A stretch of 64,000 nt of DNA from Polyangiaceae bacterium (GTDB lineage Bacteria > Myxococcota_A > Polyangia > Polyangiales > Polyangiaceae): assembly GCA_044225865.1 (NCBI GenBank), contig JBGAID010000021.1:40280-104279 (forward strand), written 5' to 3'. A model generated the notes under the pieces. The model saw only the letters and a program-made list of their open reading frames with translations, did no database searches and was not told the origin of the DNA. The translations under genes and the position numbers were made by a program. Within the stretch, counting starts at the first letter, position 1. The number at the start of each line of letters is the position of its first letter. Shown one piece after another: positions 323 to 57,549 of the stretch.

Positions 323-1488
323 GCTTCTCCCGTCTCGAGATCGACTTCCGTCGTGGCGGCCGTGAGCGTCGGGACCTCGGCGGCGCGGTCCTCGAGGCCG
401 AGCTCGTCCAGAGACTCGCGGGTGTGGGCCCGCGCGCGGATCGAGACGACGGCGCGGATCGCCCCGGCGGGGATTGGCAGGTTCGCGTCACGGGTCTCTC
501 CCGGGCCCAGCACGGCCGCGCGCACCTCGGTCGCGTCGACGATCACGTCGACTGGCCCCTCGCCATTCTCTCCGAAGACGCCCAGCTCGATCGGCGGGGC
601 ATGCGCGATACGCCCGTCGGCGTCGACGTCGCCATGAGCCGCGAGCACCGCGTCGCCGTCGCTGAAGAATCTCACCTCTACCCAAATGCGTCGGAGGGCG
701 GCGACCCCGGTGGGGACCGCGTGCCCTGCCCCCAGGTTCTCGAGCCGCACGTGGAGGAGATCCCCTTCGCGCTCGGCTTGGAGAGAGAGCGCCCGCTCCA
801 GCAATCGCGCGCCGTCGCTCGCGCGCTCCGATTGAACAGCTGCGCCCTCCCCCCAGGCAGGTCGAAGTCCGACGAAGGTGTGGTCGCGCAGGCGCCGATC
901 CAGGCCGTCGCCGCTGGCGGCGGGCCCGTCGGGGAGCGTCGGCATGTGGCAGTCGATGCAGCTGTCCCGTCCGCCGCCGGACACGAAGGCCGCGTACTCC
1001 TCGTCCGTCGGCTCGACGAAGTGCTCCGGTCCGGTGACGGCGTGGCACGTGATGCAGAGCTCGCTGTCGGCGAGCAGGGCCCCCGATCGCGCGCCGTGAG
1101 GGCCTCCTTCGCCGCCGAAGGGTCCCATGGGGGGGCGGTCGAGGTCGATGATGAGCTTGCCGTCCCTCGGCTCCGCGTTCCCGATCGCGTCGTGACAGGA
1201 GACGCAAGAGACGTGGGCGTCCGAGGTGTGGCCGGGCGTGTGGCAGCCGTCGCACCGCTTTCGCGCCGCCTCGCCCCACGCCGCCTCGACCCGAGGCCTC
1301 AGCGCTCCGAACACCGGCGAGTCGGCGCTGCTCCCATGGGCGGAAGACGCGTGCTCATCCGCCTGCCGCGCATGACAGCTCCCGCACCCCTCGTCCGCCG
1401 CGCCGTCGAGGTCCGGCCGACCGGAGCAAGCGAGGAGCGCCGTGCTCCACACGACCATCGCGTCGAACGCGAGCGAATGGCGTCTCAT
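286..1488 (-). CDS. multiheme (5x CxxCH) cytochrome c, secreted
   Basis: Internal ATG at 1488 gives MRRHSLAFDAMVVWSTALLACSG signal peptide. Five CxxCH motifs (CGSCH, CDGCH, CVSCH, CITCH, CIDCH). The upstream 5' extension of the ORF-track entry is Arg-rich junk. ATGA overlap with the upstream gene. Confidence 0.7.
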   Translation of the reverse strand: MRRHSLAFDAMVVWSTALLACSGRPDLDGAADEGCGSCHARQADEHASSAHGSSADSPVFGALRPRVEAAWGEAARKRCDGCHTPGHTSDAHVSCVSCHDAIGNAEPRDGKLIIDLDRPPMGPFGGEGGPHGARSGALLADSELCITCHAVTGPEHFVEPTDEEYAAFVSGGGRDSCIDCHMPTLPDGPAASGDGLDRRLRDHTFVGLRPAWGEGAAVQSERASDGARLLERALSLQAEREGDLLHVRLENLGAGHAVPTGVAALRRIWVEVRFFSDGDAVLAAHGDVDADGRIAHAPPIELGVFGENGEGPVDVIVDATEVRAAVLGPGETRDANLPIPAGAIRAVVSIRARAHTRESLDELGLEDRAAEVPTLTAATTEVDLETGEAHPDWRAPSNSP

Positions 1489-6794: not shown

Positions 6795-7763
6795 TCATCC
6801 GCCGCCCGCGTACTCCCAGCCGAAGCGGCCCTTGATGCACAAATGACCCTCCGTCACGGATGACTCGACGGGAGAGGTCACGCGCACGATGCGATTGTCT
6901 TGAACGCGCATCGTCAGGGCGCATCCGACGCCACAATAGGGACATGTGGTGGTGGTCTCGGTCTGCTTGGATTCGTCCCAGGTCCCGGCGGCGCGCATGT
7001 CGTGCTCGCGCTTGAAGACGAGCGCGCCGGTCGGACAAACCCCGATGCAATTGCCACAGAACACGCAGGCCGAGTCGTCGAGCGGGGTGTCGAGCTCGGT
7101 GGAGATGCGGGCCTCGAAGCCCCGCCCCGCGACCGCGATCGCGAAGGTGTTTTGGGCATCCGTCCCGCACGCCTCGACGCATTTGTAACAGAGCATGCAT
7201 TTCGCGTAGTCGCGTACGAACAGGTCATTGTCGACCTTGGGCGGCTGAGCGACAGTGGCGGCCTGTGCCCCTGTCGAGGGCGCGTGGTGTCCGGCGTGGG
7301 AATGATCCCGAGCGCCCGCCTCGGCGGGGGGAGCGGCGGGGCCGAAGCGCTCCGGCGCGGCGCCATAGCGGACCATCAGGTCGCCGATGCCGGGCGTGGC
7401 GGAGAGATCGACGCTCGAGCCGAGCAGCTCGAGGACGAGCCGGCGCGACGTGCGGACGCGCGGCGAGTCGGTGAGGACCACCATCCCCGCCTCCGCCTTG
7501 CGCGAGCAAGAAGGGACCAGGGTGCGAGCGCCCTCGAGCTCGACGACGCAGATGCGGCAGACGTTCACGGGGGTGAGGTTCTTCGCCCAGCAGAGGGTCG
7601 GAGTGTCGACCCCGCGCGCGCGGCATGCGTCGAGGATCGTCGCGCCTTCGGGGACGGAGACGCTCTCTCCGTCGACGGTGATCGAGACGTCGCGCGTAGG
7701 TCCGTCGCCTCGGTCGCGGAGGGCCCGGGGCGACGCGGGCTGAATGAGGGGCAACCGGATCAC
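6795..7763 (-). CDS. formate dehydrogenase Fe-S subunit: NuoG-like N-terminal module ([2Fe-2S] + 4Fe-4S clusters + MopB-type CxxCxxxC Fe-S domain), separate gene
   Basis: GTG at 7763 with GGAGGTG SD 5 nt upstream; GTGA overlap with the stop of the upstream NuoEF-like gene. Translation VIRLPLIQ...ITVDGESVSVPEGATILDACRARGVDTPTLC ([2Fe-2S] ferredoxin-like) ...CMLCYKCVEAC...CVFCGNCIGVCP (2x 4Fe-4S) ...TCPYCGVGCALTMRV...GHLCIKGRFGWEY (MopB Fe-S domain), then stop (AGGG*). The ORF-track entry 6795..8345 is an artificially long extension. Confidence 0.8.
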   Translation of the reverse strand: MIRLPLIQPASPRALRDRGDGPTRDVSITVDGESVSVPEGATILDACRARGVDTPTLCWAKNLTPVNVCRICVVELEGARTLVPSCSRKAEAGMVVLTDSPRVRTSRRLVLELLGSSVDLSATPGIGDLMVRYGAAPERFGPAAPPAEAGARDHSHAGHHAPSTGAQAATVAQPPKVDNDLFVRDYAKCMLCYKCVEACGTDAQNTFAIAVAGRGFEARISTELDTPLDDSACVFCGNCIGVCPTGALVFKREHDMRAAGTWDESKQTETTTTCPYCGVGCALTMRVQDNRIVRVTSPVESSVTEGHLCIKGRFGWEYAGGG

Positions 7764-9577
7764 GAGGCACCTCCGAAGAGCGCGCCGAGCTCTTTCACCG
7801 CGCTCTCGATCGCGCTCGAGGCCGTCTGACCGAGGCCGCAGATCGAGGCGTCGCGCATCACCTGTCCGAGATCCGCGAGGAGCGCGTGCTCCGCCTCCAC
7901 CGAGCCCCGCGGAGACTTGCGAACGAGGCGGGTCACGAGCTCCTCCTGCCGAACGGTGCCGACGCGGCACGGGATGCATTGGCCACAGCTCTCGTCGCGG
8001 AAGAAGCGCGCGAGCCGCTCGAGCACGGGCCCGATCGGGATCGACGCGTCGAGGACGAGGACCACGCCGGACCCGAGGGTCGCGCCCGCTTTGCGGACAT
8101 CCTCGAAGGTCAGCGGCAGATCGAGCTTGGACTTGCCGACGAAGGTGCCCGCGGCGCCGCCGAGCAGCACCGCCTGGACATCGCCAGCGCCCGCGAGCTC
8201 CAGCAGCTCGGAGAGCTTCGCCCCGAACGGGAGCTCGTAGAGGCCGGGGCGCTCGACCTTGCCCGAGACGCAGAAGAGCCGCGTGCCTGGCGAGCCCGCG
8301 GTGCCCGCGTGCCGGTACGCGGCCGCGCCGTGGGTGAGGATCCACGGCACGTTCGCGAGGGTCTCGACGTTGTTCACGACCGTCGGCCGCCCGAACAAAC
8401 CGGCCTCGACCGGGAACGGGGGCTTGGTCCGAGGCTCACCCCGGAAGCCCTCGATCGAAGCGAAGAGCGCCGTCTCCTCGCCGCAGATGTACGCGCCCGC
8501 GCCCCGCCGGAGCTCGATATCGAAGCGGACGCCTTTGCCCATGAGGTCGGGACCGAGATAGCCCCGCGCGCGCGCTGCCTCGATCGCACCAGCCAGCCGG
8601 GCGTGGGCGAGCGGATACTCCGCGCGGACATAGAGGAAGCCGAGCTCGGCGCCGACGGTGGTGCCCGCGATCGTCATCGCCTCGACGACGGCGAACGGGT
8701 CTTCCTCCATGAGGACGCGGTCCTTGAACGTGCCTGGCTCGGACTCGTCCGCGTTGCAGACGAGGTACTTGGGCCGGCCCGCCGCGGAGGCGACCGCCTG
8801 CCATTTGCGGCCGGTGGGGAAGGCGGCGCCGCCCCGACCCACGAGGCCGCTCTCGGTCACCTCTCGCAAGACGAACGCTGGACCGCGATCGAGGGCGAGG
8901 CGGAGCGCGCCATAGCCTCCGTGGGCGCGGTAGTCGTCGAGGCTCGTCGGGTCGACCCGACCGACGCGGTCGAGCAAGCGCAGCGGGAAACGCCCCCCGT
9001 CACGTCCTCTTTGGGGCACGGACGAAGCGCGCGCTGCGGAACCTCTCCCTTCATGGAGCGCGCCGAGCACCGCGCCCGGTGCGACCGGGCCCCACGCGTC
9101 CTCCTTCGACGAAGCGCCCGCGCTCACGCGGTACACGGCGGGGGCGCGCTCGCAGAGACCGAGACAGGGGCTCGAGTGCCAAGCCATGCCGTGCTTCGGC
9201 TCGCCCTCGGCGGAGTGCTCCTTGGCGAGGACCTCCTTCAGCGCGGGCGCGCCCGCGGCGTGACAGGCCAGGTCGTCGCAGACGTGGAGCGCGAGCGGCG
9301 GCCGCTCCGTGAGGGAGAACAGGGCATAGAACGTCGCCACCCCAAACGCCTCTGCGGGCGGGACGTGGAGCCGCTCGCAGGCGTGGCCGAGGGCACCGGG
9401 AGGGATCCAGCCGAAGCGCGCCTGGATCGCGTGGAGCACCGGCAAGAGGAGGTGGCGCAGCGATCTCGCCTCGCGCAGCCCCACCGTCGGGTGCGGGCTC
9501 TCGATCGCGCCGATGATCGCGTCGACGGCTTCGCGCTCTTCGGAGGTCGGCTTCGTTCGAATGGGGTGGAGATCCAC
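7760..9577 (-). CDS. fused NuoE-like/NuoF-like NAD(H)-binding flavoprotein-FeS subunit (FdsG-FdsB fusion)
   Basis: N-terminal thioredoxin-like [2Fe-2S] NuoE region (HVCDDLACH...CLGLCERAP). C-terminal NuoF region with GGAAFPTGRKW, CNADESEPGTFKDR and ESCGQCIPCRVG 4Fe-4S motif. GTG start 3 nt after the stop of the FDH catalytic gene. Confidence 0.85.
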   Translation of the reverse strand: MDLHPIRTKPTSEEREAVDAIIGAIESPHPTVGLREARSLRHLLLPVLHAIQARFGWIPPGALGHACERLHVPPAEAFGVATFYALFSLTERPPLALHVCDDLACHAAGAPALKEVLAKEHSAEGEPKHGMAWHSSPCLGLCERAPAVYRVSAGASSKEDAWGPVAPGAVLGALHEGRGSAARASSVPQRGRDGGRFPLRLLDRVGRVDPTSLDDYRAHGGYGALRLALDRGPAFVLREVTESGLVGRGGAAFPTGRKWQAVASAAGRPKYLVCNADESEPGTFKDRVLMEEDPFAVVEAMTIAGTTVGAELGFLYVRAEYPLAHARLAGAIEAARARGYLGPDLMGKGVRFDIELRRGAGAYICGEETALFASIEGFRGEPRTKPPFPVEAGLFGRPTVVNNVETLANVPWILTHGAAAYRHAGTAGSPGTRLFCVSGKVERPGLYELPFGAKLSELLELAGAGDVQAVLLGGAAGTFVGKSKLDLPLTFEDVRKAGATLGSGVVLVLDASIPIGPVLERLARFFRDESCGQCIPCRVGTVRQEELVTRLVRKSPRGSVEAEHALLADLGQVMRDASICGLGQTASSAIESAVKELGALFGGAS

Positions 9578-9580
9578 GGG

Positions 9581-11515
9581 CTACTCGGCGGCGGTGACGT
9601 TGGCGCTGATCTTCTCGATGCGGACAGCGGCGGCCTTGAACTCCGCCGTCCCCGACTTGGGATCGGTGGCGTCGATGGTGAGGACGTTCGTGTCGATCTC
9701 GTTGGGGAAGTGGAACGTCATGAAGACGAGCCCGGGGCGGAGCCGCGCGCTGATGCGCGCGGGCACGTCGAGCGAGCCGCGGCGCGACGAGACGCGGACG
9801 ATCTCTCCGTCCGCGACGCCGAGCCGAGCCGCGTCCTCGGGGCACAGATCGACCGTCTCCCCGCGCCGCAGCGGCGAGCGGTAGCTCCCCGACTGCACGC
9901 CGGTGTTGAACGAGGAGAGGCGACGCCCGGTCGTGAGCCGGAACGGGAAGTCCGCGTCGAGCGCCTCCACCGGGCCTCGCTGCTCGGTGCAGTGAAACGG
10001 CGCGCGGGGGCCCACGAGCGGCTCGGCCCAGAGGCGTCCGTGGAGGAACGGGGAGCCCTCGCTCGCCTCGTCGGGGCAGGGCCATTGCACCCCGCCGAGC
10101 CGCTCGAGCTTCTCGTAGCTCATGCCGGCGTGCATCGGCGAGAGGGTGCGGAGCTCCTCCCAGAGCTCGCGCGGGGTCGGGTCCCCGAGGTCACGCCCGA
10201 GGTGCCGCGAGAGGTCCGCGATGATCGCGATGTCGTCGCGCGCTCCTTGGGGAGGGGAGACGGCCCGGCGCACGCGCTGGACGCGTCGCTCGCTGTTGGT
10301 GACCGTCCCCTCCGCCTCCGCGAAGCTGGCGGTGGCCGGCAGGACCACGTCGGCGAGCTCGGCGGTGCGGGTGAGGAAGATATCCTGCACCACGAGGATC
10401 TCGAGGCCCTCGAGCAGGTGGGTCGCGTGCTTCGAGTCCGCCTCGGATTGGGCGGGGTTCTCGCCGATCACGTAGAGGGCGCGCATCTCGCCGCGCTCCA
10501 TCGCTTCGAACATCTGGGTGAGGTGCCAGCCCGCCTTCGGCGGGATCGTCACCCCCCAAGCGCGCTCGAACTTCGCGCGGGCCGCTTCGTCCTCGACATC
10601 CTGGAAGCCGGTGAGCTTGTGGGGCAGCGCCCCCATGTCGCCCCCGCCCTGGACGTTGTTCTGGCCGCGGAGCGGGTTCAGCCCCGAGCCCCATTTTCCG
10701 ACATGGCCGGTGAGGAGCGCGAGGTTGATCAGCGAGAGGACATTGTCGACCCCGTCGTGATGCTCGGTGATGCCGAGCGTCCAGCAGATCATGGCGCGGT
10801 CGGCGCGCGCGTAGTCCCGCGCCGCCTGCTCGATGAGGGCGGGGGCGATGCCCGTCTGCGCCGCCACGCGCTCGAGGGGATAGCGCTCGAACACGTGCGC
10901 TCGGTAGGCCTCGAAGCCCGTCGTCGCGCGCTCGATGAAGGCGCGGTTCTCGAGCCCCTCCCGCAGGATGACGTGGGCCATCCCGTTCGCGAGGGCGATG
11001 TCGCTCCCGACGTCGAGGCCGAGCCAGCCGTCCGCCCAATCCACCGACGTCGTCCGGCGGGGATCGACGGCGTAGAGCTTCGCCCCGCGGCGCACCCCCT
11101 TCAGCACGTGGTGGAAGAAGATGGGGTGCGTCTCGCGCGCGTTCGAGCCCCACAGAAGGATGACATCCGTCTCTTCCGCTTCGCGATAGGAGCTCGTGCC
11201 GCCGCCTGCTCCGAAGACCGTCGCCAGACCGACGACGCTGGGGGCGTGTCAGGTTCTGTTGCAGCTGTCGATGTTGTTCGACCCGATCGTCGACCGGATG
11301 AACTTCATCGCCATGTAGTTCACCTCGTTGGTCGCCTTCGAGCACGAGAAGATCCCGAAGGTCCGGGGGCCGTGGGCGTCGACGGAGGCACGGATCCCTC
11401 CCGCCGCCCGCGCCATCGCCTCTTCCCATGTCGCCGGGCGCAGCGGCCCGCGCGTCCCGTCGGGGTTTCGGTCACGCACGAGGGGCTGGGTGAGGCGCGG
11501 GAGAGGCTTTCGCAT
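9581..11515 (-). CDS. fdhA: formate dehydrogenase catalytic (molybdopterin) subunit with in-frame TGA read as selenocysteine (around 11249-11251); lacks the usual N-terminal Fe-S domains
   Basis: ATG 11515 with GGAG SD. Two ORF-track pieces (11249..11515 and 9581..11107) are in the same frame, separated only by TGA. Translation ...FGIFSCSKATNEVNYMAMKFIRSTIGSNNIDSCNRT-U-HAPSVVGLATVFGAGGGTSSY... aligns with the FdhF active-site block CARVUHGPSVA. Downstream MopB and molybdopterin dinucleotide-binding domains, ending ISANVTAAE*. No Fe-S N-terminal domain is present in this gene. Confidence 0.8.
11213..11238 (-). promoter_or_regulatory. candidate bacterial SECIS hairpin immediately 3' of the in-frame UGA
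   Basis: mRNA: UGA CAC GCC CCC AGC GUCGUCG-GUCUGG-CGACGGU. A 7-bp stem (including 2 G·U pairs) whose apical region contains GGUCUG, as in the E. coli fdhF SECIS (GCAGGUCUGCACC). Begins 13 nt after the UGA. Confidence 0.5.
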
Positions 11516-11581
11516 GGCGGGCTCCGAGGGGCGGCAGCATACCGGAGCAGGCGGGCGAATCCCACTCGCGCGAGTGGAAAG

Positions 11582-12667: not shown

Positions 12668-15292
12668 TCAGACGAGGGCGAACGCGCTCACGATCTGCTC
12701 CGATGCAGCCGACCCGCGATAGAGCGGAGCGGCGGCCAGGACCGACCGCACGATCGGCCCCGCCACCTCCGCCTCTTGCGCGTCGAAGCCGCTCAAGATC
12801 GCGGCGACGGAGCTGGGAAGCCCATCCGGCAACGCCTCGCCGAAGGGACGGGTGAGCAATGCAATCGCGAGCGCGGCCCGGCCCGCGTCGTCACCGGTGG
12901 TCGTGCCCACGAGCTTGCGGAGGCTCGCGAGGGTGCGCTTGAGCTCGGCTTTGAAGAGGCCTTCGCGGTGCGAATGCCCCCGCGCGACGAGCGCCGCCAC
13001 CGCCGCGAGGGTGACCGCGAGATCGCCCCCGAAGATCCCGTCTGCCCCTTGCAGGAGGATCAGCGCGCGAAGCCCCGCCTCGTCGTTGGTGAGGGTCGGC
13101 GGCGGCGCCGCCGCGCGCGCGGGCTGCGCCGGGAGCGCCACCGATCGCGGTACGGCGGGCGCGGGGGCCCGCATCGCGACGGGCGGCGGAGGCGGAGGCG
13201 CCGCGGGAGGAGGGGGTGGCGCGAAGCCTTGGGGAGCGGCCATTCCCATCGGCGCCATCCGGGGCGGAGCGGCCATCGAAAGCGGCACCGGCGGCCCGAA
13301 GCCTGGCGGTCCCCCGAAGCCGCCCGCGAGAGGTGGGCCTGCCGAGAACGCCGCGGAGACGACGTTGGCCGGCATCGGGAGGGCGACGGGGATGCTGCCC
13401 GTCACCACCACCCCGCGATCGTCGCCGTGGGTCGCGACGAGGGCGACGGCGCGATTGGCGAGGCCGAACGCCGTTCCCAGCGCCTCCAGCGTCGGATCGT
13501 CGGCAGCATCGAACTTATAAGTGAGCCGCCTGTTCTTGAGCAGCGCCCACACGAGCGGAGCGACGCCTTCCCCTTGCTCGTTCGAGGCGACCGCGCCCAC
13601 GTCCACGCTGAGCCGCAGGTCTTCTCCGTCGGCGCGCTGCCCCGTCAGGACGATGCGGTCGCCCGCCTCGACCGCGCCGCGAAACGCGAAGAGCGCCGGC
13701 TCGCCCCCAAACAGATCGAGCGGCCCCGCGGGCTCGAGCTGCCTCGGCGCGCGCAGATCTCCGGCGTGGTCGACCGCGACCTTGATGGTCGTCCACAGCG
13801 GTGCGTAGATCGCGTTCTTCAATCGACTGAGGGCGCGCTCGAGGTCCTCGTCCGTGGTGACGGGGATGTAGACCCCGCCCCCCGCCGCCGCGAGCGACGC
13901 GAGCATCGCGTGGTTGACCGAGTTGCCGATGCCGATGACGTGGACGCGCGTATCGACGAGCTTCGCCCGCGCGGCCGCGAGCACGGCCTCCGCGTCCCCC
14001 ACATCGCCGTCGGTCATGAAGACCACCACCCGAAGGCGATGAGGCGCGTCGTCGCCCTTGGTCGGCGCCGTCATCGACACCGCCGCGTCTCCAAGACGCG
14101 CGTCCAGGACCGCGCCGATCGCGAGGGACGCGTGCGTCCCCCCTCGGGAGGAGATGCTCCCGATGAAGGCGTCGGCCGCGGCCAGCATCCTGTCGTCGAA
14201 CGGCACCGGGCGATCGGCGAACGCCTCCAGCGCGTCGTCGAACGCGAGGATGTTGAACCGGTCAACGGGACTGAGGGCGCGCAAGCAGCCGCGCACCGCT
14301 CGAATGGCGGAGCTCATCGGACCGGAGGCCATCGACCCGGAGCGATCGACCAAGAAATGAATGGTCCTCGGAATGACCGGCCCCTCGTCGGCATACGCGG
14401 GCGGCACGATCGCAATCGCGGTCGTCGGTCCCGCCCCATCGGGGCCGGGGGTCGCGTCGTAGCGATGCCACAGCACCGGCACTTCACCCGGCGGCCGGTC
14501 TCCAATTTCCAGGATGAAGTCCCGATCGAGCGGCGCGGGCCCCATCTTCACGACCGTCACCCTCCCCTCCCCCGCGCTCGCAGAGGTGGGGTGGCTCGCG
14601 CACTTGAGCTTGGGCGCGCCCGCGGGCCCGTGCGCGACCGAGACCTGGACCTTCGCGCGCGCGGCGAGGATGAGCGGCCGGGGGCGGTCCACCGCCGCCG
14701 CCTCGATCGGCTTGAGGGCGGCAGGATCCTCCACGAAGCGCGGCATGTACGTGAGCGGGACGATCAAGCGGTGGCCGCCGTCCGTCGGGAGCAGCGTCTG
14801 CACCACCCCCAGCACGACCTCGACCCGCTCGCCCGCCTCGATCGGGGCCACGCGCAGCTGCGCGAGGTCCTCGCCCTCCGTCTCCCCGAGGGCGGCCGTC
14901 TTGCCCGCCTCGAGCGCGCGCGTGTACTCGGCAGCGGCCCGGTCGCGCGCGCGGATCTTCGCCGTGAGGGCGCGCCCGCCGACCGTGACCACGAGCTTCG
15001 CGAGCGCGGCCGAAGGCGGCAAAGGAAAGATCAGATCGCCTTCGACGACCCGCCCGAGGTCGTTCTCGAAGACGACGGCGAGCTCCGAGAGCGCGAAGGG
15101 GCCGTCGACGACCACCTCCGCGTCGAGGCTACGCACCGAGAGATGATCCCCCTGGGCCGTCTCGAGCTGCACGCCCCAGCGCCGGTCGCGCCTTCGGGGA
15201 GGCTCCGCCGCCGCGTCGGTCAGCGGCCAGGTGCACACAGCGCAAGCCGTCAGATTGTTCGCGTTCGGCGCCCCGCACCTTGCACAGTTCAT
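12668..15292 (-). CDS. VIT (vault protein inter-alpha-trypsin) + von Willebrand factor A domain protein with N-terminal zinc-ribbon and Pro-rich region
   Basis: N-terminal MNCARCGAPNANNLTACAVC zinc ribbon, then a VIT-like beta region. vWA MIDAS motif FLVDRSGSM...TDG. Pro-rich low-complexity linker (PPPPPAAPPPPPP). Confidence 0.8.
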   Translation of the reverse strand: MNCARCGAPNANNLTACAVCTWPLTDAAAEPPRRRDRRWGVQLETAQGDHLSVRSLDAEVVVDGPFALSELAVVFENDLGRVVEGDLIFPLPPSAALAKLVVTVGGRALTAKIRARDRAAAEYTRALEAGKTAALGETEGEDLAQLRVAPIEAGERVEVVLGVVQTLLPTDGGHRLIVPLTYMPRFVEDPAALKPIEAAAVDRPRPLILAARAKVQVSVAHGPAGAPKLKCASHPTSASAGEGRVTVVKMGPAPLDRDFILEIGDRPPGEVPVLWHRYDATPGPDGAGPTTAIAIVPPAYADEGPVIPRTIHFLVDRSGSMASGPMSSAIRAVRGCLRALSPVDRFNILAFDDALEAFADRPVPFDDRMLAAADAFIGSISSRGGTHASLAIGAVLDARLGDAAVSMTAPTKGDDAPHRLRVVVFMTDGDVGDAEAVLAAARAKLVDTRVHVIGIGNSVNHAMLASLAAAGGGVYIPVTTDEDLERALSRLKNAIYAPLWTTIKVAVDHAGDLRAPRQLEPAGPLDLFGGEPALFAFRGAVEAGDRIVLTGQRADGEDLRLSVDVGAVASNEQGEGVAPLVWALLKNRRLTYKFDAADDPTLEALGTAFGLANRAVALVATHGDDRGVVVTGSIPVALPMPANVVSAAFSAGPPLAGGFGGPPGFGPPVPLSMAAPPRMAPMGMAAPQGFAPPPPPAAPPPPPPVAMRAPAPAVPRSVALPAQPARAAAPPPTLTNDEAGLRALILLQGADGIFGGDLAVTLAAVAALVARGHSHREGLFKAELKRTLASLRKLVGTTTGDDAGRAALAIALLTRPFGEALPDGLPSSVAAILSGFDAQEAEVAGPIVRSVLAAAPLYRGSAASEQIVSAFALV

Positions 15293-17865: not shown

Positions 17866-19290
17866 CTACGTCAGCTCTTCGAGGGAGCGCCCCTCGCTCG
17901 GCACACAAAGAAGGCGGGCGACGATCGCGGCCGCAACCATCAGCGCCGCCGCGAACCCATACCCGGCAAACAGGCTCGCCGGGTCTCCCTCCTCGATGAT
18001 CCGGGCGAACAGCGACGGCGCCACCGCTCCGCCCCCCGTGCCGACGGCATAGAAGAGCGCGATCGCCATTCCGCGCACCTCGACCGGAAACAGCTCGCTG
18101 ACGGTGAGGTAGGCCGAGCTCGCCGCCGCCGACGCGACGAAGAACACGACGCACCACGCGATCGTCTGGGTGCCCGCGTCGAGGAGCCCGCCCCAAAACA
18201 AGAGCCCCGTTCCGAGCAGCAACACGCCCGAGGCGGCGTACGTGATCGGGATCATCACCCGCCGCCCCAACCGGTCGAAGAGCGGACCAAGCAACAGAGG
18301 ACCGAGGAAGTTCCCCGCTGCGAACGGCACCACGTAGAGGCCAATGCGCTCCGGCCGGACGTGGTGAAACCGCTCCAAGATGAGGCCATAGGAGAAGAAG
18401 ATCGCGTTGTAGAAGAAGGCTTGCGCGATCATCATGACGAGCCCCAGCACCGTCCGCCGGGGGAAGCGGCGCATCAGCACGTGAAAGACGTGCCTCGGCC
18501 CCACCGCCCCCATCACCGTGATGTCGACGAGGGCCAGAGCCTCGGCCGCGGCCACGGGACCTCCTGCTCCTCGGATCTTCTCCTCGATCGCATCCAAGGT
18601 GCGCGAGGCCTCCCTCACATGGCCGTGCATCAAGAGCCACCGCGGGCTCTCCGGGACGTCGCGGCGCACGACGAGAATGGCGAGCCCGATGATCGCGCCC
18701 ATCCCGAACACCAACCGCCAGCCGATCTCCACCGGGATCCACCTCGGATCGAGGAGCACCAACGTCAGCCCCGCCCCGAGGGCGACCCCGACCCAATAGC
18801 TGCCGTTGATCCCGAGATCGATCCGACCGCGCAGCCGCGCCGGCACGAGCTCGTCGATCGCGGAGTTGATCGCGGAGTATTCGCCCCCGATGCCCGCCCC
18901 CGCGAGGAATCGAAAGACGAGGAACACGGCGAGCCCGGGCGCGGCCCCGCTCGCAGCGGTAGCGGCCAAGTAGAGACCGAGCGTCACGAGGAACAGTCGC
19001 TTTCGCCCGTAGCGGTCCGTCAGATGACCGAACACGAGGGCGCCAACCACCTGCCCGATCAAGTAGACGGTGTTTGCGAGGCCGACCTCGGAGACCCGCA
19101 GCCCCAGCGTCCTCTCGTCTTGCAGCGTTGGAGCGAGGCTCGCGATCAGGCTGGCCTCGAGCCCGTCGAGGATCCACGTGATGCCGAGCGCCATGACCAC
19201 CCGACGGTGCCACCGCGACCACGCGAGCGCGTCCAGGCGCGTGGGCACGTTCGACCGAACGACGGAGCCCCGAGTCGCGTCTGGCCGCAT
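17866..19290 (-). CDS. MFS transporter
   Basis: 12 predicted TM helices. MFS motif GHLTDRYGRKRLF between TM2 and TM3. Confidence 0.8.
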   Translation of the reverse strand: MRPDATRGSVVRSNVPTRLDALAWSRWHRRVVMALGITWILDGLEASLIASLAPTLQDERTLGLRVSEVGLANTVYLIGQVVGALVFGHLTDRYGRKRLFLVTLGLYLAATAASGAAPGLAVFLVFRFLAGAGIGGEYSAINSAIDELVPARLRGRIDLGINGSYWVGVALGAGLTLVLLDPRWIPVEIGWRLVFGMGAIIGLAILVVRRDVPESPRWLLMHGHVREASRTLDAIEEKIRGAGGPVAAAEALALVDITVMGAVGPRHVFHVLMRRFPRRTVLGLVMMIAQAFFYNAIFFSYGLILERFHHVRPERIGLYVVPFAAGNFLGPLLLGPLFDRLGRRVMIPITYAASGVLLLGTGLLFWGGLLDAGTQTIAWCVVFFVASAAASSAYLTVSELFPVEVRGMAIALFYAVGTGGGAVAPSLFARIIEEGDPASLFAGYGFAAALMVAAAIVARLLCVPSEGRSLEELT

Positions 19291-19484
19291 CGCGGGACCG
19301 TAGCAGATCGTTTGAGGTCAAACGATTTGCGGTCGCCCGTTCGTGGCGCCCCGGTGTCCATCGCCGGTGGACACCCTGTCCCTCCCCGTCACCCGCAGGT
19401 GGACACTCCCCCCGACAATCCCTCGAAATTGGAGGACATCACCGGTGCAGCGCTGCCGGCACGGTTCGTGATTGGCGACTCGCC

Positions 19485-20480
19485 ATGCTTCGATGGATCG
19501 CGCTCACGACGACCAGCCTCGCTCTCGTCTCCAGCGCCTGCGGCGGCGAAAGCCAGCCCGCGACGGAGGGCGGGGGAGGCGCGGAGAGCGCCGCCGGCGG
19601 CGAAGGGGGCGAGGGAGGCGCGCCGCCCGAGGCGGGAGGAGGCGGGGCCGGCTTCGAGGGATCCGGCGGCGGAGCGATGGACGGCTGCAAGAAGGTCGAC
19701 TTCCTCTTCGTGGTCGACAACTCCGTCTCGATGAATGACGAGCAGGACGCGCTCGTCGTCAGCTTCCCGTCCTTCATGGAGACCATCGAGAGCACCCTAT
19801 CGGCGGCGGACTATCACGTCCTCGTCGCCGACACCGACGCGTGGGGGCGCTGCAACACCGCGAACGGCTGGGTGGGAGAGACGCCGGACCACCAGACGTG
19901 CAACGACTATGTCGAGACCGCGCAGTTCGAGGAGTGCGACCGGGTTCGAGGAGCGGGGGTCATCCATCCTGCCGGTGAATACGCGAGCAACCAGATTTGC
20001 GACGTCTATGGCGGCAATCGATACATCGTCGATGGCGACCCGAACGCGGCCGAGACGTTCTCATGCATGGCGAAGGTGGGCACGGCCGGCAGCGCCTCCG
20101 AGCGCCCCATGGAAGCCATCGTCGGAGCCGTCTCGCCCGAGCTCAACGCGGCCGGTGGCTGCAACGAGGGGTTCATTCGATCCGACGCGATCCTCGTCGT
20201 CACGTTCATCAGCGACGACCCGAACTACGAAGACACAGGGACCCCGCAATCCTGGTACGACGCCGTCGTCTCCGCCAAGGGCGGCAAGGCGGACGCGGTC
20301 GTCGTGCTCGGGCTCACGCCCTACGACGGCGGCACCGCCGGGCAGCACTGGCACGACTTCATCGGGCGGTGGGGAGACCGCGGGCTCGAGGCCTCCGTCG
20401 AGCTCCCCGACTACTCTCCGTTCTTCGCGGAGGCGGTGGACCTGATCGATCAGACTTGCGACGACTTCGTCCCCCAGTGA
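19485..20480 (+). CDS. secreted lipoprotein with vWA-like domain
   Basis: MLRWIALTTTSLALVSSAC lipobox. Gly/Glu-rich linker. DFLFVVDNSVSM MIDAS-type motif. Confidence 0.65.
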   Translation: MLRWIALTTTSLALVSSACGGESQPATEGGGGAESAAGGEGGEGGAPPEAGGGGAGFEGSGGGAMDGCKKVDFLFVVDNSVSMNDEQDALVVSFPSFMETIESTLSAADYHVLVADTDAWGRCNTANGWVGETPDHQTCNDYVETAQFEECDRVRGAGVIHPAGEYASNQICDVYGGNRYIVDGDPNAAETFSCMAKVGTAGSASERPMEAIVGAVSPELNAAGGCNEGFIRSDAILVVTFISDDPNYEDTGTPQSWYDAVVSAKGGKADAVVVLGLTPYDGGTAGQHWHDFIGRWGDRGLEASVELPDYSPFFAEAVDLIDQTCDDFVPQ

Positions 20481-20483
20481 CGG

Positions 20484-21914
20484 TCAGTCGGCCGGCTCGA
20501 TGACGAGCTCGCTCCCGCCGCAGACGACATCGGCGCGGCCTGCCGAGTTGGACACCTCCGCCACGACCCCGTCGCAGCGCGCCGTGACTCCGCCCGGGTA
20601 CAGCCGGTGGGGAATGGCGATCTCGTGGGGCACGTCGGCGGCCGCGCCCGACAAAGCGACCGTGAGCCTCCGCGGCCCGGGCTCGAACGAGAAGGACTCG
20701 ATGGTCCCCGCCACCGCGGATGGATAGGGGCGCGCGAGGGCGTCCGCGACCTCCTCGCGCAGCGGACCTCGCGCTTGTCCCGAGGGGGGAGGGTCGTAGA
20801 GCCCCCACGCGCCTTGCGAGGTCTCTTCGTAGAGCCACCACGCGCTGGAGATCGCTCGCGCGTCGAACACGTCCAGGCAAGCGCGCACGTATCTCAGCCC
20901 GTGCTCGTCGGGGCCGTTGCCGAACTCTCCCACGTAGAGCGCCGCTCCGTACGCGTCCGCCTCTCTCCTCGCCGCGTCCACGCTGGCCTCGACCGCCGTG
21001 ACGTCCTCGCTCGCCCACCCATCCTCGAACACGTCGACATAGACGTGCGGCGAATACACCGCGTCCTCGAAGCCGATGGGGGAGAGCACGGTCGACGAGT
21101 CGGTCAGGTTGCGCAGACTGTCGGGCTCGAAGAAGATGGTCAATGCGGGCGCTGCGGCGCGCACCGCGTCCCCCACCCGCCCATCGAAGTCGTCGAGGCG
21201 ATTGGCGAAGATCACCACCACCGGCTCGTTCATGAGCTCGAGCCCGAGGACGCCGGGCTGCCCCGCGATCCGTCCCGCGAGCCAGCCCGCCATGTCGGCG
21301 TAGGCCTGCTGGACGCCCTCCGCGTCGTTGAAGAACGAGTCGAAGGCGCCAATCACTTGCGCGCTCGTTCGCCGCTCGTCGAGGTCGGTGAGAGGGCCGG
21401 AGAGGAGCTCGGTCGGCGGCGGCACGATGGCCCAGAGCGGCGCTCCGTCCTCCCCGATGTGCTTGCTGAAGGCGTCTTGATGCAGATCCACCAAGGTCGC
21501 CACGCCGTGGGCGTCGCAGGCGGCGGCGAGGGCGAGCACCGCGTCCACGTAGTCGTCCCGATACTCCCCGCGGACCGGCTCGATCGCGCTCCAACTGACG
21601 GGCAGGCGGAGATGATTCATCCCGAGCTCCTCGGCGATGAACGCGCAGTCGGCCTCCGTGAAGGCGGGGATGGACTCCACCGGAGCGCGCCCGTCGTCGA
21701 ACGTCACGTCGAAGATGCCTGCGACCCGCGCGTTCACTCCGCGCAGCACCCGCTGCCGGCCCTGCGAATCGCGCAGCACCCCTTCGCTCGCGGTGAGCGC
21801 GTCGGTCGGGGTCACGGTGGACGCGGGCGGCGACGAATCACCGCAAGCGGCGCACGCCGCGATCAGCAAGAGCGAGGCGCCTTCGTGGCGGGGTAGGGCC
21901 GCGACCTTCTCCAT
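20484..21914 (-). CDS. glycoside hydrolase family 5 (cellulase-like) lipoprotein
   Basis: LLLIAACAAC lipobox. GH5 catalytic-region motifs (LVDLHQD..., ...LELMNEP...). Confidence 0.75.
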   Translation of the reverse strand: MEKVAALPRHEGASLLLIAACAACGDSSPPASTVTPTDALTASEGVLRDSQGRQRVLRGVNARVAGIFDVTFDDGRAPVESIPAFTEADCAFIAEELGMNHLRLPVSWSAIEPVRGEYRDDYVDAVLALAAACDAHGVATLVDLHQDAFSKHIGEDGAPLWAIVPPPTELLSGPLTDLDERRTSAQVIGAFDSFFNDAEGVQQAYADMAGWLAGRIAGQPGVLGLELMNEPVVVIFANRLDDFDGRVGDAVRAAAPALTIFFEPDSLRNLTDSSTVLSPIGFEDAVYSPHVYVDVFEDGWASEDVTAVEASVDAARREADAYGAALYVGEFGNGPDEHGLRYVRACLDVFDARAISSAWWLYEETSQGAWGLYDPPPSGQARGPLREEVADALARPYPSAVAGTIESFSFEPGPRRLTVALSGAAADVPHEIAIPHRLYPGGVTARCDGVVAEVSNSAGRADVVCGGSELVIEPAD

Positions 21915-44230: not shown

Positions 44231-46870
44231 TCAGTTTCCGTGGACTTCGGTCAGCTTCGCCGCGGTCGCGCCGTCGAGATCGCCACTCGGCTCGAGGTCG
44301 TGATCCTCCTGGAAGTCGATGATCGCCTGCTTCGTCTTGGGGTCCATCCCCGGGCCGGCGCCCGTCTCGTAGCCGAGGTTCGCGAGGCGGGTGCGAGCGC
44401 CCTCCGTCGTCGAGGCGGGCTCCGGGTCTTCAATCGCGATGTCCCAGACGTGGCGCTTCCCCGCCGGAGGCTCTCCCTCCCAGAGGACGAGGTGGGCCTT
44501 CGTCGCGCCCTTCGGAATGTCCTGCGCCACCGTACCGTCCCCGCTCGTCGTGCCGGAGTATCTTCGGCCGTCGACCGTCAATTCATAGGGACGGCTCGCG
44601 TAGGGCTGGAAGGCGCCATCGCTCAGCTTCAGCTTGAACGGCTGCGTCTCGGGCGGCGCCGCATCGGCCGTCGCTTTGGGCGGGTCGCCCTCTCGATAGC
44701 CGAGCTTGATCGCGGCCCCCTTCGTGTAGACGTCCTTGGTGAGCTCGAAGCTCGACCCGGTGCCGAAGAAGCGCGCGGCGGGGGCGGAGATCTTCGCCTC
44801 GCCGTCCAGGGCCACGATCGACCTGTCGCTCTTCACGGTGGTGCTCTCGGCGCCATTGACCACGATCTCCTTGGCGGTGATCTCGACACGGTCGGGCGTC
44901 ATGCGCAGCACGCTGTCTCCGCATTGAATGGTCACGCTCCGCTCCGCGTGGAGGACGAGATCCTCATCGGCGCCGAGGTTCCACGAGCCGGTCGCGTGGA
45001 GGGCGGCGGAGGCGGGCGCGTCGATCCCCACATTCACTCCCAGGCCTCCAATGGCGGTCAGGCTCGCGTCGTGATCGACGCGCACGCTCGCGGTCGCGTG
45101 GTAGCGCGCAGTCGCCGCTCCCGTCACCTCGACCGTGTCGACGCCGCCGACGACGTCGGCTCGGTTGCCGGTGACATTGGACGAGACATTCCCCGTCGTG
45201 TCCTCCGCGCGATTGCCCCGCACGACGTCGAGCTTGTCGCCGCCGACGGCGAGGCTCTGCTTGCCCGTCACGCTCTCGCTGCGGTTGCCGCCGATCGTGA
45301 TGGAGCGATCTTTCGCCACGGTCGTCGTTTGGTTCGCCCCGACCGTCTCGGTCAGGTGCTTCTCGGCGCGGAGCTCGATCGCCTCCTCGCCGAGCTTGTC
45401 CTCGAACGCGAGCTCGTTGTAGCCCTTCCCTCCCGGCATGGATCGGGTGCGGATCCCGCTGCGCGTCTGGCCCGACGCCTTCGCGTAGATCGGCGGGTGC
45501 TCCGCGTTGGGGACGCTCCCGATGACGATGGGCCTGTCCACGTCTCCCCCGAGGAAGGCGACGAGCACTTCCATCCCGATGCGCGGAATGAATTGAAAGC
45601 CCCAGCCCGCACCTGCCCACGGCTGCATGACTCGGAGCCAGCACGACGTGGCCCCGTCGAGCTTGCCCTCGCGGTCCCAATGAAACTGCACCTTGATGCG
45701 ACCGAGATCGTCCGTGAACAGCTCATTGCCGGGCGGCCCCACGACGACCGCTGTCTCGAGCACCTGTTGAATCCGCGGAGCGGGCGGTTCGGGCCGGAAC
45801 ACCGTCGTCGAGGGGACGGCGCGAAACGTGTTTCGATAGGGCGGCTCGTTCGACGCGCCGCCGTCGTAGTGAGGGTCGCGACCGAAGTGATCGACGCTCA
45901 CGACCGTGTAGGTCCCGTCGTGCGACTCGAGATCGGCGTCTGCGATCTCGATCCCCATGCCGGCGGCGAGGGACGCGTTCTCGGTGTCCCCGCGCGCCAC
46001 CCACCGCAGGCGCCGGTGCTGCTCGAGGCGCACCGAGGCGAGCGCGCTGGAGGTGGCGATCGGGTCGAGGACGCCGTCGTGATGATATTGCTCGCCCTCC
46101 TCTCCCTCCTTCGCCTCCGCCTTCAGATCGAGCGACGGACGATTGAAGTCGAAGTCCTTCACCACCACCGAGCCCGCGTGCGCGCGCCGCTCGAGGCTGA
46201 ATCGGCGAACGTCAGGGGTGTCGCTCCGTTGTCCATAGTCCTCGCGCGGGTGGAGCTTGGGGGCGCCCGGGACGAGGGCGCACGCGGTCGCGCTGCTCGC
46301 GAGGACGAGCACCTCTTTGCCGCGCTCGTCCGCCTGCTGCTCAAAGAAATAGAAGCTCCCATCCTCGGCGAGCAACCGCTCGACGAAGGCGAGATCGGTC
46401 TCTTGGAATTGGACACAATACTCGCGGTGCGAGATGTCTGTGGCGGACCGGTCGGAGACGTCCAACCCCGAGGCAGAGAGCACCTCGGAGATGATGGCGC
46501 CCGTCGACTTGTCCTGGAAGACGCGGCTGTTCCGCTTGAGAGAGACGAGCGCGAGGCGCGGGACCACCTCGAAGGTGTAGAGCCGCATCTCGGGCCGGCT
46601 CCGGGGCGCGCCCGTGACCGCGACGCTCCGAACCACCCCGTGCACCCACCGCCGTGCCCGAGCGTCGCCGAACCCGAGGTGGCACGTCTTGCCGACGTAT
46701 TGGTCCTCGACCGTCTTCGCGTCGAGGGGGGCGCGCTCCACTCGAACCTCGAAGCGATAGGGGGTCGAGATCGCCTCGACGCCCGAGAAGCTGGTCACGA
46801 CGAGGTGCTCGGGGGCCCCGTCCACGTCGAATTCGAACAGCTCATCCTGCGCCGCGGCCATGCGCGCCAT
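44231..46870 (-). CDS. vgrG: type VI secretion VgrG spike protein with C-terminal peptidoglycan-binding domain
   Basis: ATG 46870 (MARMAAAQDELFEFDVDGAPEHLVVTSFSGVEAISTPYRFEV); ATG 46861 is an alternative. gp27-like and gp5-like OB/beta-helix regions (VVGPPGNELFTDDLGRIKVQFHWDR...). C-terminal TRLANLGYETGAGPGMDPKTKQAIIDFQEDHDLEPSGDLDGATAAKL PG_binding_1-like domain. The 5' extension in the track ORF is junk. Confidence 0.85.
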   Translation of the reverse strand: MARMAAAQDELFEFDVDGAPEHLVVTSFSGVEAISTPYRFEVRVERAPLDAKTVEDQYVGKTCHLGFGDARARRWVHGVVRSVAVTGAPRSRPEMRLYTFEVVPRLALVSLKRNSRVFQDKSTGAIISEVLSASGLDVSDRSATDISHREYCVQFQETDLAFVERLLAEDGSFYFFEQQADERGKEVLVLASSATACALVPGAPKLHPREDYGQRSDTPDVRRFSLERRAHAGSVVVKDFDFNRPSLDLKAEAKEGEEGEQYHHDGVLDPIATSSALASVRLEQHRRLRWVARGDTENASLAAGMGIEIADADLESHDGTYTVVSVDHFGRDPHYDGGASNEPPYRNTFRAVPSTTVFRPEPPAPRIQQVLETAVVVGPPGNELFTDDLGRIKVQFHWDREGKLDGATSCWLRVMQPWAGAGWGFQFIPRIGMEVLVAFLGGDVDRPIVIGSVPNAEHPPIYAKASGQTRSGIRTRSMPGGKGYNELAFEDKLGEEAIELRAEKHLTETVGANQTTTVAKDRSITIGGNRSESVTGKQSLAVGGDKLDVVRGNRAEDTTGNVSSNVTGNRADVVGGVDTVEVTGAATARYHATASVRVDHDASLTAIGGLGVNVGIDAPASAALHATGSWNLGADEDLVLHAERSVTIQCGDSVLRMTPDRVEITAKEIVVNGAESTTVKSDRSIVALDGEAKISAPAARFFGTGSSFELTKDVYTKGAAIKLGYREGDPPKATADAAPPETQPFKLKLSDGAFQPYASRPYELTVDGRRYSGTTSGDGTVAQDIPKGATKAHLVLWEGEPPAGKRHVWDIAIEDPEPASTTEGARTRLANLGYETGAGPGMDPKTKQAIIDFQEDHDLEPSGDLDGATAAKLTEVHGN

Positions 46871-46939
46871 CTTCGATGCCGCCACCACGCCGGGCAAGGG
46901 CCACGCGCGGAGTGACAGTTCGCTCCCAATCTGGCAACA

Positions 46940-47662
46940 ATGCCCCCCGTGAGGTCTGCACCGAAATGGCGGCTCTATGCGACCTGGGAGCCGCGGCCGG
47001 AGCCGCCCGCGGACGCGGTCGATCGGCTCCTCGTCCTCTTCGACGCCCTGCGGGCAGGCTCCGATCGCGCTTGGACCGCCGCCCTCGGCAAGTCGGCCCA
47101 GCCCCACCCTTGCCGCGACGGCGCTTCCGTCGAGTGGGCGCTCCGCGCCGGCAGCTTTCCACTCGAGCGACGCCCTCGCGCGGGCGACTTCAGCTGTCAA
47201 AGCTTCTATCTGGGCACCTTCCGCCGCTGGGAGAGCAAGCTCACCGTCGCGTGCGGCGCCCGCGACAAAGTCGCCAATATCGAGACTCCCAACCGAATCG
47301 AGATCTCGGGCACCCACGAGCGGGAGCCCCAATCCCTCCGCGAGCTCCTCGTCGTCGTGATCGCCGCCTTCCGCCCCGCGTGGGCGTTCATCGCTCGTGG
47401 CGACGCCCCCCAGTTTCCCGTCCCCGGAATGGCCACCCCCACCGTGGGATGGATCACCTATCTATCGTCCGCGTTCGGCCCGGTCCCGCCTCACCCGTGC
47501 CTCAGCCCCGTCCCCGTCCCGCGCTTCGGCACGCTGGTCCAAATCGCCAAAGACGGAGAGAGGATCGAAGAGAGCTCCGTCGCTCAGCTGCGCGCGGTGA
47601 CGCGAGCATTGAAGAGCGCAGGGGTGTTTCGATCAGAACGTGAGTCGAAGCGAGAGCCCTGA
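46940..47662 (+). CDS. hypothetical protein divergent from vgrG (240 aa)
   Basis: Strong GC3, W/Y/F-containing composition. 70-bp divergent intergenic region with vgrG. No domain recognised. Confidence 0.5.
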   Translation: MPPVRSAPKWRLYATWEPRPEPPADAVDRLLVLFDALRAGSDRAWTAALGKSAQPHPCRDGASVEWALRAGSFPLERRPRAGDFSCQSFYLGTFRRWESKLTVACGARDKVANIETPNRIEISGTHEREPQSLRELLVVVIAAFRPAWAFIARGDAPQFPVPGMATPTVGWITYLSSAFGPVPPHPCLSPVPVPRFGTLVQIAKDGERIEESSVAQLRAVTRALKSAGVFRSERESKREP

Positions 47663-56719: not shown

Positions 56720-56890
56720 CTCCCCGCCGGCGAGCTCGACAATCGTGGACGCGCCGCTCGTCACGGCGGCTCGCCGATGTTTGTCCTGTTCTCGAGCAGA
56801 GATTGGTCGTCGCAGTCGCGTTCACGAAGGCGCTTTTGGCAGTTGACGAGACAGTCGCGAGCGTGTTTTGGTTCATAGCTCGGGGGCAGG

Positions 56891-57523: not shown

Positions 57524-57549
57524 CCCCAACCTCGTGAGCCTCGAGCACC

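Follow-up and report, generated by a model that had tools for sequence, protein, structure and literature searches.

Among bacterial selenoproteins, the formate dehydrogenase (FDH) subunit FdhA has the widest distribution, and it is often the sole selenoprotein that a genome encodes (PMC1794560, PMC13188914); selenocysteine (Sec)-containing FDHs have also been documented in aerobic actinomycetes such as the mycobacteria (PMC13449736). In Escherichia coli FdhH, a single chain of 715 amino acids (aa) carries both the active-site Sec140, encoded by UGA, and its own N-terminal [4Fe-4S] domain, and the partner of the enzyme is hydrogenase 3. We analyzed a stretch of 64,000 nucleotides (nt), referred to here as the window, from a Polyangiaceae bacterium (assembly GCA_044225865.1, contig JBGAID010000021.1, positions 40,280 to 104,279 of the forward strand; G+C content, 68.6%), in which a gene for an FDH catalytic subunit is interrupted by a UGA at the homologous codon. 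The codon is followed by His in both organisms, but in the Polyangiaceae genome the [4Fe-4S] domain resides on a separate polypeptide and the predicted partner is a NuoEF-type diaphorase. Comparison with related loci leads us to conclude, with a probability of roughly 90%, that this UGA (codon 89) encodes Sec in an FDH subunit that is functional.

An in-frame UGA at the metal-ligand codon

The gene, the codon, and the RNA element that this conclusion concerns are the following.

9581..11515, minus strand: gene for a Mo/W-bis-pyranopterin FDH catalytic subunit (Pfam and Protein Data Bank [PDB] matches)
11249..11251, minus strand: in-frame UGA, codon 89, predicted to encode Sec as the Mo/W ligand (alignment and ortholog conservation)
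11220..11236, minus strand: minimal hairpin of the bacterial Sec insertion sequence (SECIS) type, 17 nt, beginning 12 nt past the UGA (covariation and synonymous constraint)

The preliminary description of this stretch had proposed that a single TGA breaks one catalytic open reading frame (ORF), and this is borne out by the translation. The ORFs at 11249..11515 and 9581..11107, both on the minus strand, share a common frame, and reading from 11515 to 9581 gives 645 codons in which the TGA at 11251..11249 is the sole internal stop (...NIDSCNRT*HAPSVVGLATVF...), with no frameshift. The gene starts with ATG at 11515, preceded by GGAG, and ends with TAG at 9583..9581. Its product would have 644 residues, among them the predicted Sec89, His90, and Arg283, and the peptide predicted to span the Sec is ...SCNRT-U-HAPSVVGLATVFGAGGGTSSYR. 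A scan of the window for further TGA-interrupted genes returned only antisense shadows and adjacent genes.

Across the whole frame, Pfam detects the Molybdopterin (4.3e-68) and Molydop_binding (1.9e-28) domains, and end-to-end matches in the PDB include FdhF of the hydrogen-dependent CO2 reductase of Thermoanaerobacter kivui (7qv7_S, 7e-151), FdsA of Rhodobacter capsulatus (6tg9_A, chain residues 308 to 932, 2.6e-136), and E. coli FdhH (1aa6_A, 1.5e-135), with the Mo-bis(pyranopterin guanine dinucleotide) (Mo-bisPGD) fold of which the product agrees at the sequence level. The column of the TGA is that of the metal-ligand Cys in solved FDHs (CARLCHAPTV in 7qv7_S, CARICHGPSV in 7bkb_D, and CARVCHSPT in 6tg9_A), and UGA89 is homologous to codon 140 of E. 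coli fdhF (CCARV*HGPSVAGL, read from NC_000913.3). Its placement at the catalytic Sec/Cys position of FdhF/FdhA, as originally suggested, is therefore upheld by alignment with enzymes of known structure and with Sec140. Class I Mo/W-bisPGD FDHs are defined by an active site of the form C/U-H ... R-G-Q (PMC8808070), and both parts of it are present, with His directly after the ligand in U89-H90 and Arg within the RGQ of L-R283-G-Q-N-N (LRGQNN). The product is not a complete FdhF or FdhA, as the gene covers just the Mo/W module of an FdsA-like subunit that is split between genes. The frame from 11515 to 9581 probably specifies the catalytic Mo/W-bis-pterin subunit of a soluble, putatively NAD(H)-linked FDH.

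Orthologs were collected by scanning one genome per species, which yielded 80 loci with relatives at 64 to 85% identity. These came from metagenome-assembled genomes (MAGs) labeled Polyangiaceae/Myxococcales, Gaiellales, Thermoleophilia, Solirubrobacterales, and other Actinomycetota, as well as several classes of Acidobacteriota, Planctomycetota, Dehalococcoidia/Chloroflexi, Vulcanimicrobiota, and one Betaproteobacterium. All 78 of the orthologous loci that cover the region, from about seven phyla, have TGA at the Sec codon. Furthermore, five metagenome assemblies made independently contain the identical 88-aa N-terminal product, and in every one of them the TGA and the sequence behind it are as in the window; sequencing error, the scenario in which reads would carry TGC at this codon, is therefore ruled out. 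Samples of activated sludge with this sequence include SRR28480388 and ERZ27282990, and the host is, tentatively, a myxobacterium of that habitat. Close relatives in the protein databases (71 to 86% identity, among the matches listed) were all called as proteins of 503 to 560 aa that start past the TGA. The preliminary description had also suggested looking for orthologs with Cys (TGC) at this codon, and such forms exist in Saccharopolyspora and Streptomyces, outside the closer set that keeps TGA throughout. They are full-length relatives of ~640 aa with 61 to 63% identity and Cys at the Sec position (CNRTCHAPSV in proteins P0046, P0079, P0080, P0091, P0106, and P0111), and the codon was TGC in the three DNAs that were fetched (P0046/L087, P0111/L089, and P0080/L090).

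The frame is open and conserved on both sides of the UGA. The ratio of nonsynonymous to synonymous substitution rates (dN/dS) against the closest relative, a Polyangiaceae MAG (L002), is 0.148 before the TGA and 0.146 after it, values that indicate purifying selection of the same strength on the two gene halves. Between the TGA and the GTG at 11107 lie 47 codons, which are among the most conserved of the protein and include His90. Within them, HAPSVVGLATVFGAGGGTSSY is invariant or nearly so in amino acid sequence, with normal synonymous variation from codon +10.

Two database contigs depart from this pattern. In a farmland scaffold (ENA ERZ1761205; L094, encoding P0022), CGA (Arg) at 413..415 replaces the TGA with the hairpin intact (GTCGTC GGTCT GACGAC), which would be explained by an error in the reads or the assembly or else by a T>C change that inactivated the gene very recently. 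A contig of 1571 bp (ENA ERZ27282907; L084) is identical to the window over the first 88 codons, and its post-TGA protein is only 79% identical; it may be a chimera assembled from two related strains or have arisen by recombination at that point.

The hairpin downstream of the UGA

The hairpin is composed of a 5' arm, GUCGUC (11236..11231), an apical loop, GGUCU (11230..11226), and a 3' arm, GGCGAC (11225..11220). In this register, standard pairs were found in 100% of 342 cells of the alignment (57 distinct sequences), and RNAalifold recovered the same register unprompted. One stem pair changes from C-G to G-C in 10 distinct sequences, a swap that requires silent changes at two third positions (Val GTC to GTG and Ala GCG to GCC); another alternates among U-G, C-G, and U-A, and two more alternate with wobble forms. 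A hairpin starting at the 13th nucleotide after the UGA had been proposed in the preliminary description, and this start is retained. The pairing register given there (GUCGUCG/CGACGGU, with the loop GUCUGG) is not, with 32 broken cells and 92% of cells paired versus 100%. In this sequence the two registers have predicted stabilities of −6.5 and −8.3 kcal/mol, the latter for the supported one, in which the 3' side is shifted by three nucleotides and the loop becomes GGUCU.

Codons +5 to +9 relative to the UGA are the only ones at which synonymous variation collapses, while codons +2, +3, and +10 onward vary freely. Codon +5 is GTC in 65 sequences and GTG in 12, codon +6 is GTC in 68 of 68, codons +7 and +8 are GGT and CTG, respectively, in 77 of 77, and codon +9 is GCG in 62 and GCC in 12. 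Codon entropy is 0 at GTC(+6), GGT(+7), and CTG(+8), versus 1.0 to 1.85 bits at other invariant Gly and Leu columns, where GGC is preferred; GGT makes up a minority of the Gly codons in the rest of these genes. The third positions of the 12-nt spacer between the UGA and the hairpin are free. Because the collapse is confined to codons +5 to +9, the constrained element is the 17-nt hairpin alone. The three Cys orthologs served as a control: they use GGG CTG, GGT CTG, and GGC CTC for the Gly-Leu pair and do not keep the stem.

The apex had previously been likened to the SECIS loop of E. coli fdhF, and the likeness extends to position, as GGUCUG lies at an identical offset from the UGA in both (G22 G23 U24 C25, counted from the U of UGA). 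SelB contacts G23 and U24 of the E. coli element, in which the short upper hairpin begins 12 nt past the UGA, as it does here. The structure downstream of UGA89 has the features of a bacterial SECIS in general, namely, a stem-loop soon after the UGA whose apical loop has a conserved G and U (GGUCU is invariant), and of the fdhF type in particular, namely, GGUC at the apex, with the spacing of G23/U24 from the UGA fixed. The 32-nt consensus of UGA plus hairpin occurs once in the window, compared with 0 occurrences in 100 shuffles.

Decoding capacity and alternative readings

Several observations weigh against the insertion of Sec at UGA89. The preliminary description had stated that selA, selB, and selD, as well as tRNA-Sec, are missing from the window, and ARAGORN, Rfam, and protein searches likewise found none of them in the 64 kb, where the only credible tRNA is one for Met. 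The ±10 kb around the 79 other orthologs also lacked Sec machinery, with one exception (L059, discussed below). No FdhD-like product was found by Pfam among the neighboring ORFs of the window, in a search that was not aimed at FdsD. With regard to the RNA, the hairpin, with six uninterrupted base pairs and a loop of 5 nt, has no counterpart of the U17 that is bulged in E. coli. The extended lower helix that reaches the UGA in fdhF-type elements is not well supported either; RNAalifold predicts a lower-stem helix with broken pairs and no compensatory change. The best Rfam family on a 251-nt stretch is SECIS_3 (RF01989). This match is anchored at the UGA, with the UGAC of the model on the UGA and its apical AGUCU on GGUCU, and scores 13.8 bits (E = 2.5) against a gathering score of 63; no Rfam SECIS family reaches its gathering score on the hairpin, which is a nonmember of SECIS_3 by the Rfam criterion. 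Finally, the fold of the single sequence, proposed earlier as a check, is unremarkable when compared with shuffles (z = +0.93) in this region of ~69% G+C, whereas the alignment fold recovers the helix. The hairpin is significant because of comparison with other sequences and not because of single-sequence folding.

The exceptional locus belongs to a Gaiellales MAG and was the only one among all fetched loci to contain homologs of E. coli SelA and SelB. Following its operon within 9 kb, on the opposite strand, are fdhD, mobA, selB, and selA (14487..20660 of L059), and the products of the last two genes score well above their cutoffs (SelA, TIGR00474, 510.8 bits versus an equivalog cutoff of 267.9; SelB, TIGR00475, 351.7 bits versus 242.25). 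Rfam found no tRNA-Sec beside this selA in the stretch covered, and ARAGORN found none in 60 orthologous loci. A 97-nt "tRNA-Arg(tcg)" called by ARAGORN within nuoF of the window (8395..8491, minus strand) was rejected as a false positive; it has no Rfam tRNA or tRNA-Sec match at an E value of ≤10 and is absent from the closest relative. Judged from the genomes, retention of the TGA, the hairpin, and an intact frame in at least six species-level genomes of Polyangiaceae/Myxococcales in addition to this one would be irreconcilable with hosts that do not decode the codon.

The alternative that survives best is that the UGA is recoded as Cys or another residue, either by a selC*-type tRNA(Cys) via a SelB-like factor or by near-cognate read-through, and we regard it as improbable. 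A selC* tRNA(Cys) with a UCA anticodon, which can insert Cys at UGA, is known together with a second selB from deltaproteobacteria (PMC5389517); Cys is functional at this position in homologs, and the window is devoid of Sec machinery, all of which would suit such a scheme. However, the reported selC* hosts are anaerobes that also have the full Sec apparatus (PMC5389517), and TGC would be the simpler solution if Cys were intended, as in the Actinomycetes homologs. The strictly conserved fdhF-type loop, predicted to bind SelB, and the presence of selA beside selB in the Gaiellales locus favor Sec, and near-cognate read-through would leave the constraint on the hairpin unexplained.

It is very unlikely that the UGA terminates translation and that two polypeptides, one of 88 aa and one of ~508 aa reinitiated at GTG 11107, assemble into the enzyme. 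This is how automatic annotation reads the gene, in a family that already tolerates a split between its FeS (iron-sulfur) and Mo modules. However, the 47 codons that would go untranslated, with HAPSVVGLATVFGAGGGTSSY and the catalytic His90, are among the most conserved, the enzyme would be without its Mo/W ligand, and the called starts vary among orthologs (503 to 560 aa), so there is no conserved internal start. That the gene is a pseudogene, its TGA being a nonsense mutation or a sequencing or assembly error, might be suggested by gene callers, which in every source report separate products of 88 and 508 aa, and by the lack of Sec machinery in the window, but it is effectively refuted by the recurrence of the TGA in five independent assemblies and in all 78 orthologs across phyla, by the absence of any other stop or frameshift in 645 codons, by dN/dS values of ~0.15 on either side of the TGA, and by nucleotide conservation and covariation of the hairpin that would be unexpected in a decaying gene.

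The split operon and its relatives

Two further genes follow the catalytic gene on the same strand.

7760..9577, minus strand: NuoE-NuoF fusion gene, 605 aa, diaphorase resembling FdsG plus FdsB or Fdh1B (Pfam and PDB)
6795..7763, minus strand: FeS subunit gene, 322 aa, corresponding to the N-terminal ~300 residues of FdsA (Pfam and PDB)

The NuoE-NuoF fusion combines a 2Fe-2S thioredoxin-like domain, a flavin mononucleotide (FMN)/NAD(H) site, and a 4Fe-4S domain (Pfam 2Fe-2S_thioredx, Complex1_51K, SLBB, and NADH_4Fe-4S), and its PDB matches are the beta subunit of an NAD-dependent FDH (6vw7_B, 5e-109), Fdh1B (7e5z_B, 1.9e-93), and FdsB (6tg9_B, 1.3e-89). The NuoF-like FMN/NAD(H) and NuoE-like 2Fe-2S modules of FdsABG-type enzymes are hence encoded with the catalytic subunit. 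The fusion gene starts with GTG after a 3-nt gap behind the stop of the Mo gene, and the GTG start of the FeS gene at 7763 overlaps the nuoEF stop (GTGA). The FeS subunit contains one 2Fe-2S motif, two ferredoxin-type 4Fe-4S motifs, and a C-terminal Molybdop_Fe4S4 domain (Pfam Fer2_4, Fer4/Fer4_7, and Molybdop_Fe4S4) and aligns with FdsA residues 25 to 303 (9wxb_B, 6.7e-47; 6tg9_A, 1e-44). Cys is absent from it between residues 87 and 188, a region rich in His, Ala, and Pro, and it therefore lacks the His-ligated [4Fe-4S] cluster equivalent to N5 of NuoG.

The Mo subunit begins at the equivalent of FdsA residue ~308 and is without the N-terminal [4Fe-4S] domain, which is encoded two genes downstream. 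Alignment places the split of the FdsA-like alpha subunit exactly at the boundary of the Fe4S4 and Mo domains, with the halves encoded in permuted order around the diaphorase gene. The order Mo, NuoEF, FeS was found in all 76 loci with enough sequence and is shared by Cys-type operons from cultured Saccharopolyspora and Streptomyces and from one Joint Genome Institute (JGI) contig; it is therefore a stable architecture of the family and not a rearrangement specific to the window. The permuted order is the one expected if a nuoEF-fdsA unit were duplicated in tandem and both ends were then lost. Some of the Cys-type operons, whose proteins are annotated as "molybdopterin oxidoreductase family protein," adjoin genes for FdhD or genes for oxalyl-CoA decarboxylase and formyl-CoA transferase (oxalate degradation). 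We found no characterization of these operons in the FDH and selenoprotein literature, in searches that were not aimed at them.

We propose the following mechanism for the Sec-containing enzyme. With the ribosome at UGA89, a complex of SelB, GTP, and Sec-tRNA(Sec) would bind the 17-nt hairpin 12 nt downstream through its 6-bp stem and GGUCU loop, with G23 and U24 placed as in E. coli fdhF, and SelB would deliver Sec in competition with release factor 2. Sec89 would ligate Mo or W, with His90 and Arg283 completing the class I "U-H ... R-G-Q" site. Electrons from formate would pass to the proximal [4Fe-4S] cluster on the separate FeS polypeptide (7763..6795), run along the FeS chain of that subunit, reach the FMN bound by the NuoE-NuoF fusion (9577..7760), and finally reduce NAD+. 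In the reverse direction, the complex may reduce CO2.

The closest genome carries the operon at 81% nucleotide similarity over 4.7 kb (window 6799..11526 versus L002 9583..14299). This similarity ends at the operon borders, and the flanks have no detectable similarity or synteny, a pattern compatible with a three-gene unit that moves as a cassette. We hypothesize, as a tentative and rather doubtful extension, that the operon is a horizontally mobile cassette with its own 17-nt SECIS and may be the main selenoprotein of many soil and wastewater lineages that are for the most part aerobic (Polyangiaceae, Gaiellales/Thermoleophilia, Acidobacteriota, Vulcanimicrobiota, and Dehalococcoidia), as well as the reason that the Sec trait is kept in them. 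Selenoproteins are rare in such lineages according to reviews. If the hypothesis is true, the operon would represent an uncharacterized, probably oxygen-exposed class of Sec-dependent, NAD-linked FDH that annotation systematically truncates.

A Sec-FDH with a SECIS is the commonest kind of bacterial selenoprotein, and in this respect the identification is correct but ordinary; it brings no change to concepts of Sec decoding or FDH function. Less ordinary are the split, permuted FdsA-like architecture with a NuoEF diaphorase and the sharing of a near-invariant minimal SECIS by many mostly aerobic, uncultured lineages whose genes are systematically truncated in databases. Literature searches on Sec-FDH in Myxococcota or Thermoleophilia, on Sec in Sorangium, and on FdsA, FdsB, or NuoG with selenocysteine returned nothing specific to the family. 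The database entries seen for the UGA clade are all cut to ~503 to 560 aa or split off as an 88-aa fragment, and selenoprotein-aware reannotation would return the catalytic Sec and His to protein clusters numbering well over a hundred and identify the organisms carrying them as users of Sec. The finding extends the commonest bacterial selenoprotein to an FDH architecture that is split and linked to NuoEF and that is widespread among uncultured lineages of soil and activated sludge, from about seven phyla. The family also offers a clean natural data set for SECIS covariance models, being invariant at the expected SelB contacts and covarying in a stem that Rfam misses.

Elsewhere in the window are genes for an 874-aa VIT and von Willebrand A protein (12671..15292, minus strand), a 984-aa bacterial homolog of the major vault protein with Major Vault Protein shoulder and Vault_3 repeat domains (30713..33664, minus strand), an RHS-repeat toxin (33444..37385, plus strand), and a VgrG-like spike with a peptidoglycan-binding domain (44234..47461, minus strand), as well as an extracellular contractile injection system cluster (56879..63480, plus strand; Pvc16_N, sheath, CIS tube, and gp25 baseplate wedge). 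In the Polyangiaceae MAG STL-MYX14 (L016), an array of 13 tRNA genes in 2.1 kb (19084..21165) lies ~7.6 kb downstream of the FDH gene.

Among described enzymes, those closest to the operon in domain content are FdsABG(D) of R. capsulatus (6tg9/6tga) and Cupriavidus necator (6vw7), in which FdsA residues 25 to 303 and 308 to 932 are covered by the FeS and Mo subunits, and the W-containing FDH Fdh1AB of Methylobacterium extorquens (7e5z/7vw6), in which Fdh1B is also a fusion, like NuoE-NuoF here. The active-site His and Arg are common to all of these and the Mo subunit. However, FdsABG(D) and Fdh1AB use Cys rather than Sec as the metal ligand, and their alpha subunit is a single chain encoded after or beside the diaphorase genes, with a NuoG-like FeS N terminus in the FdsABG type, whereas it is divided between two genes here in 76 of 76 loci. 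FdsA also carries a His-ligated cluster like N5 of NuoG, which the FeS subunit lacks, and the operonic fdsC/fdhD and fdsD of the FdsABG type are not part of the three-gene unit. The Cys-type operons of Saccharopolyspora and Streptomyces have TGC in place of TGA, and neither the Gly-Leu codons nor the stem is conserved in them at the nucleotide level, but they share the split architecture and gene order and are 61 to 63% identical over the full length.

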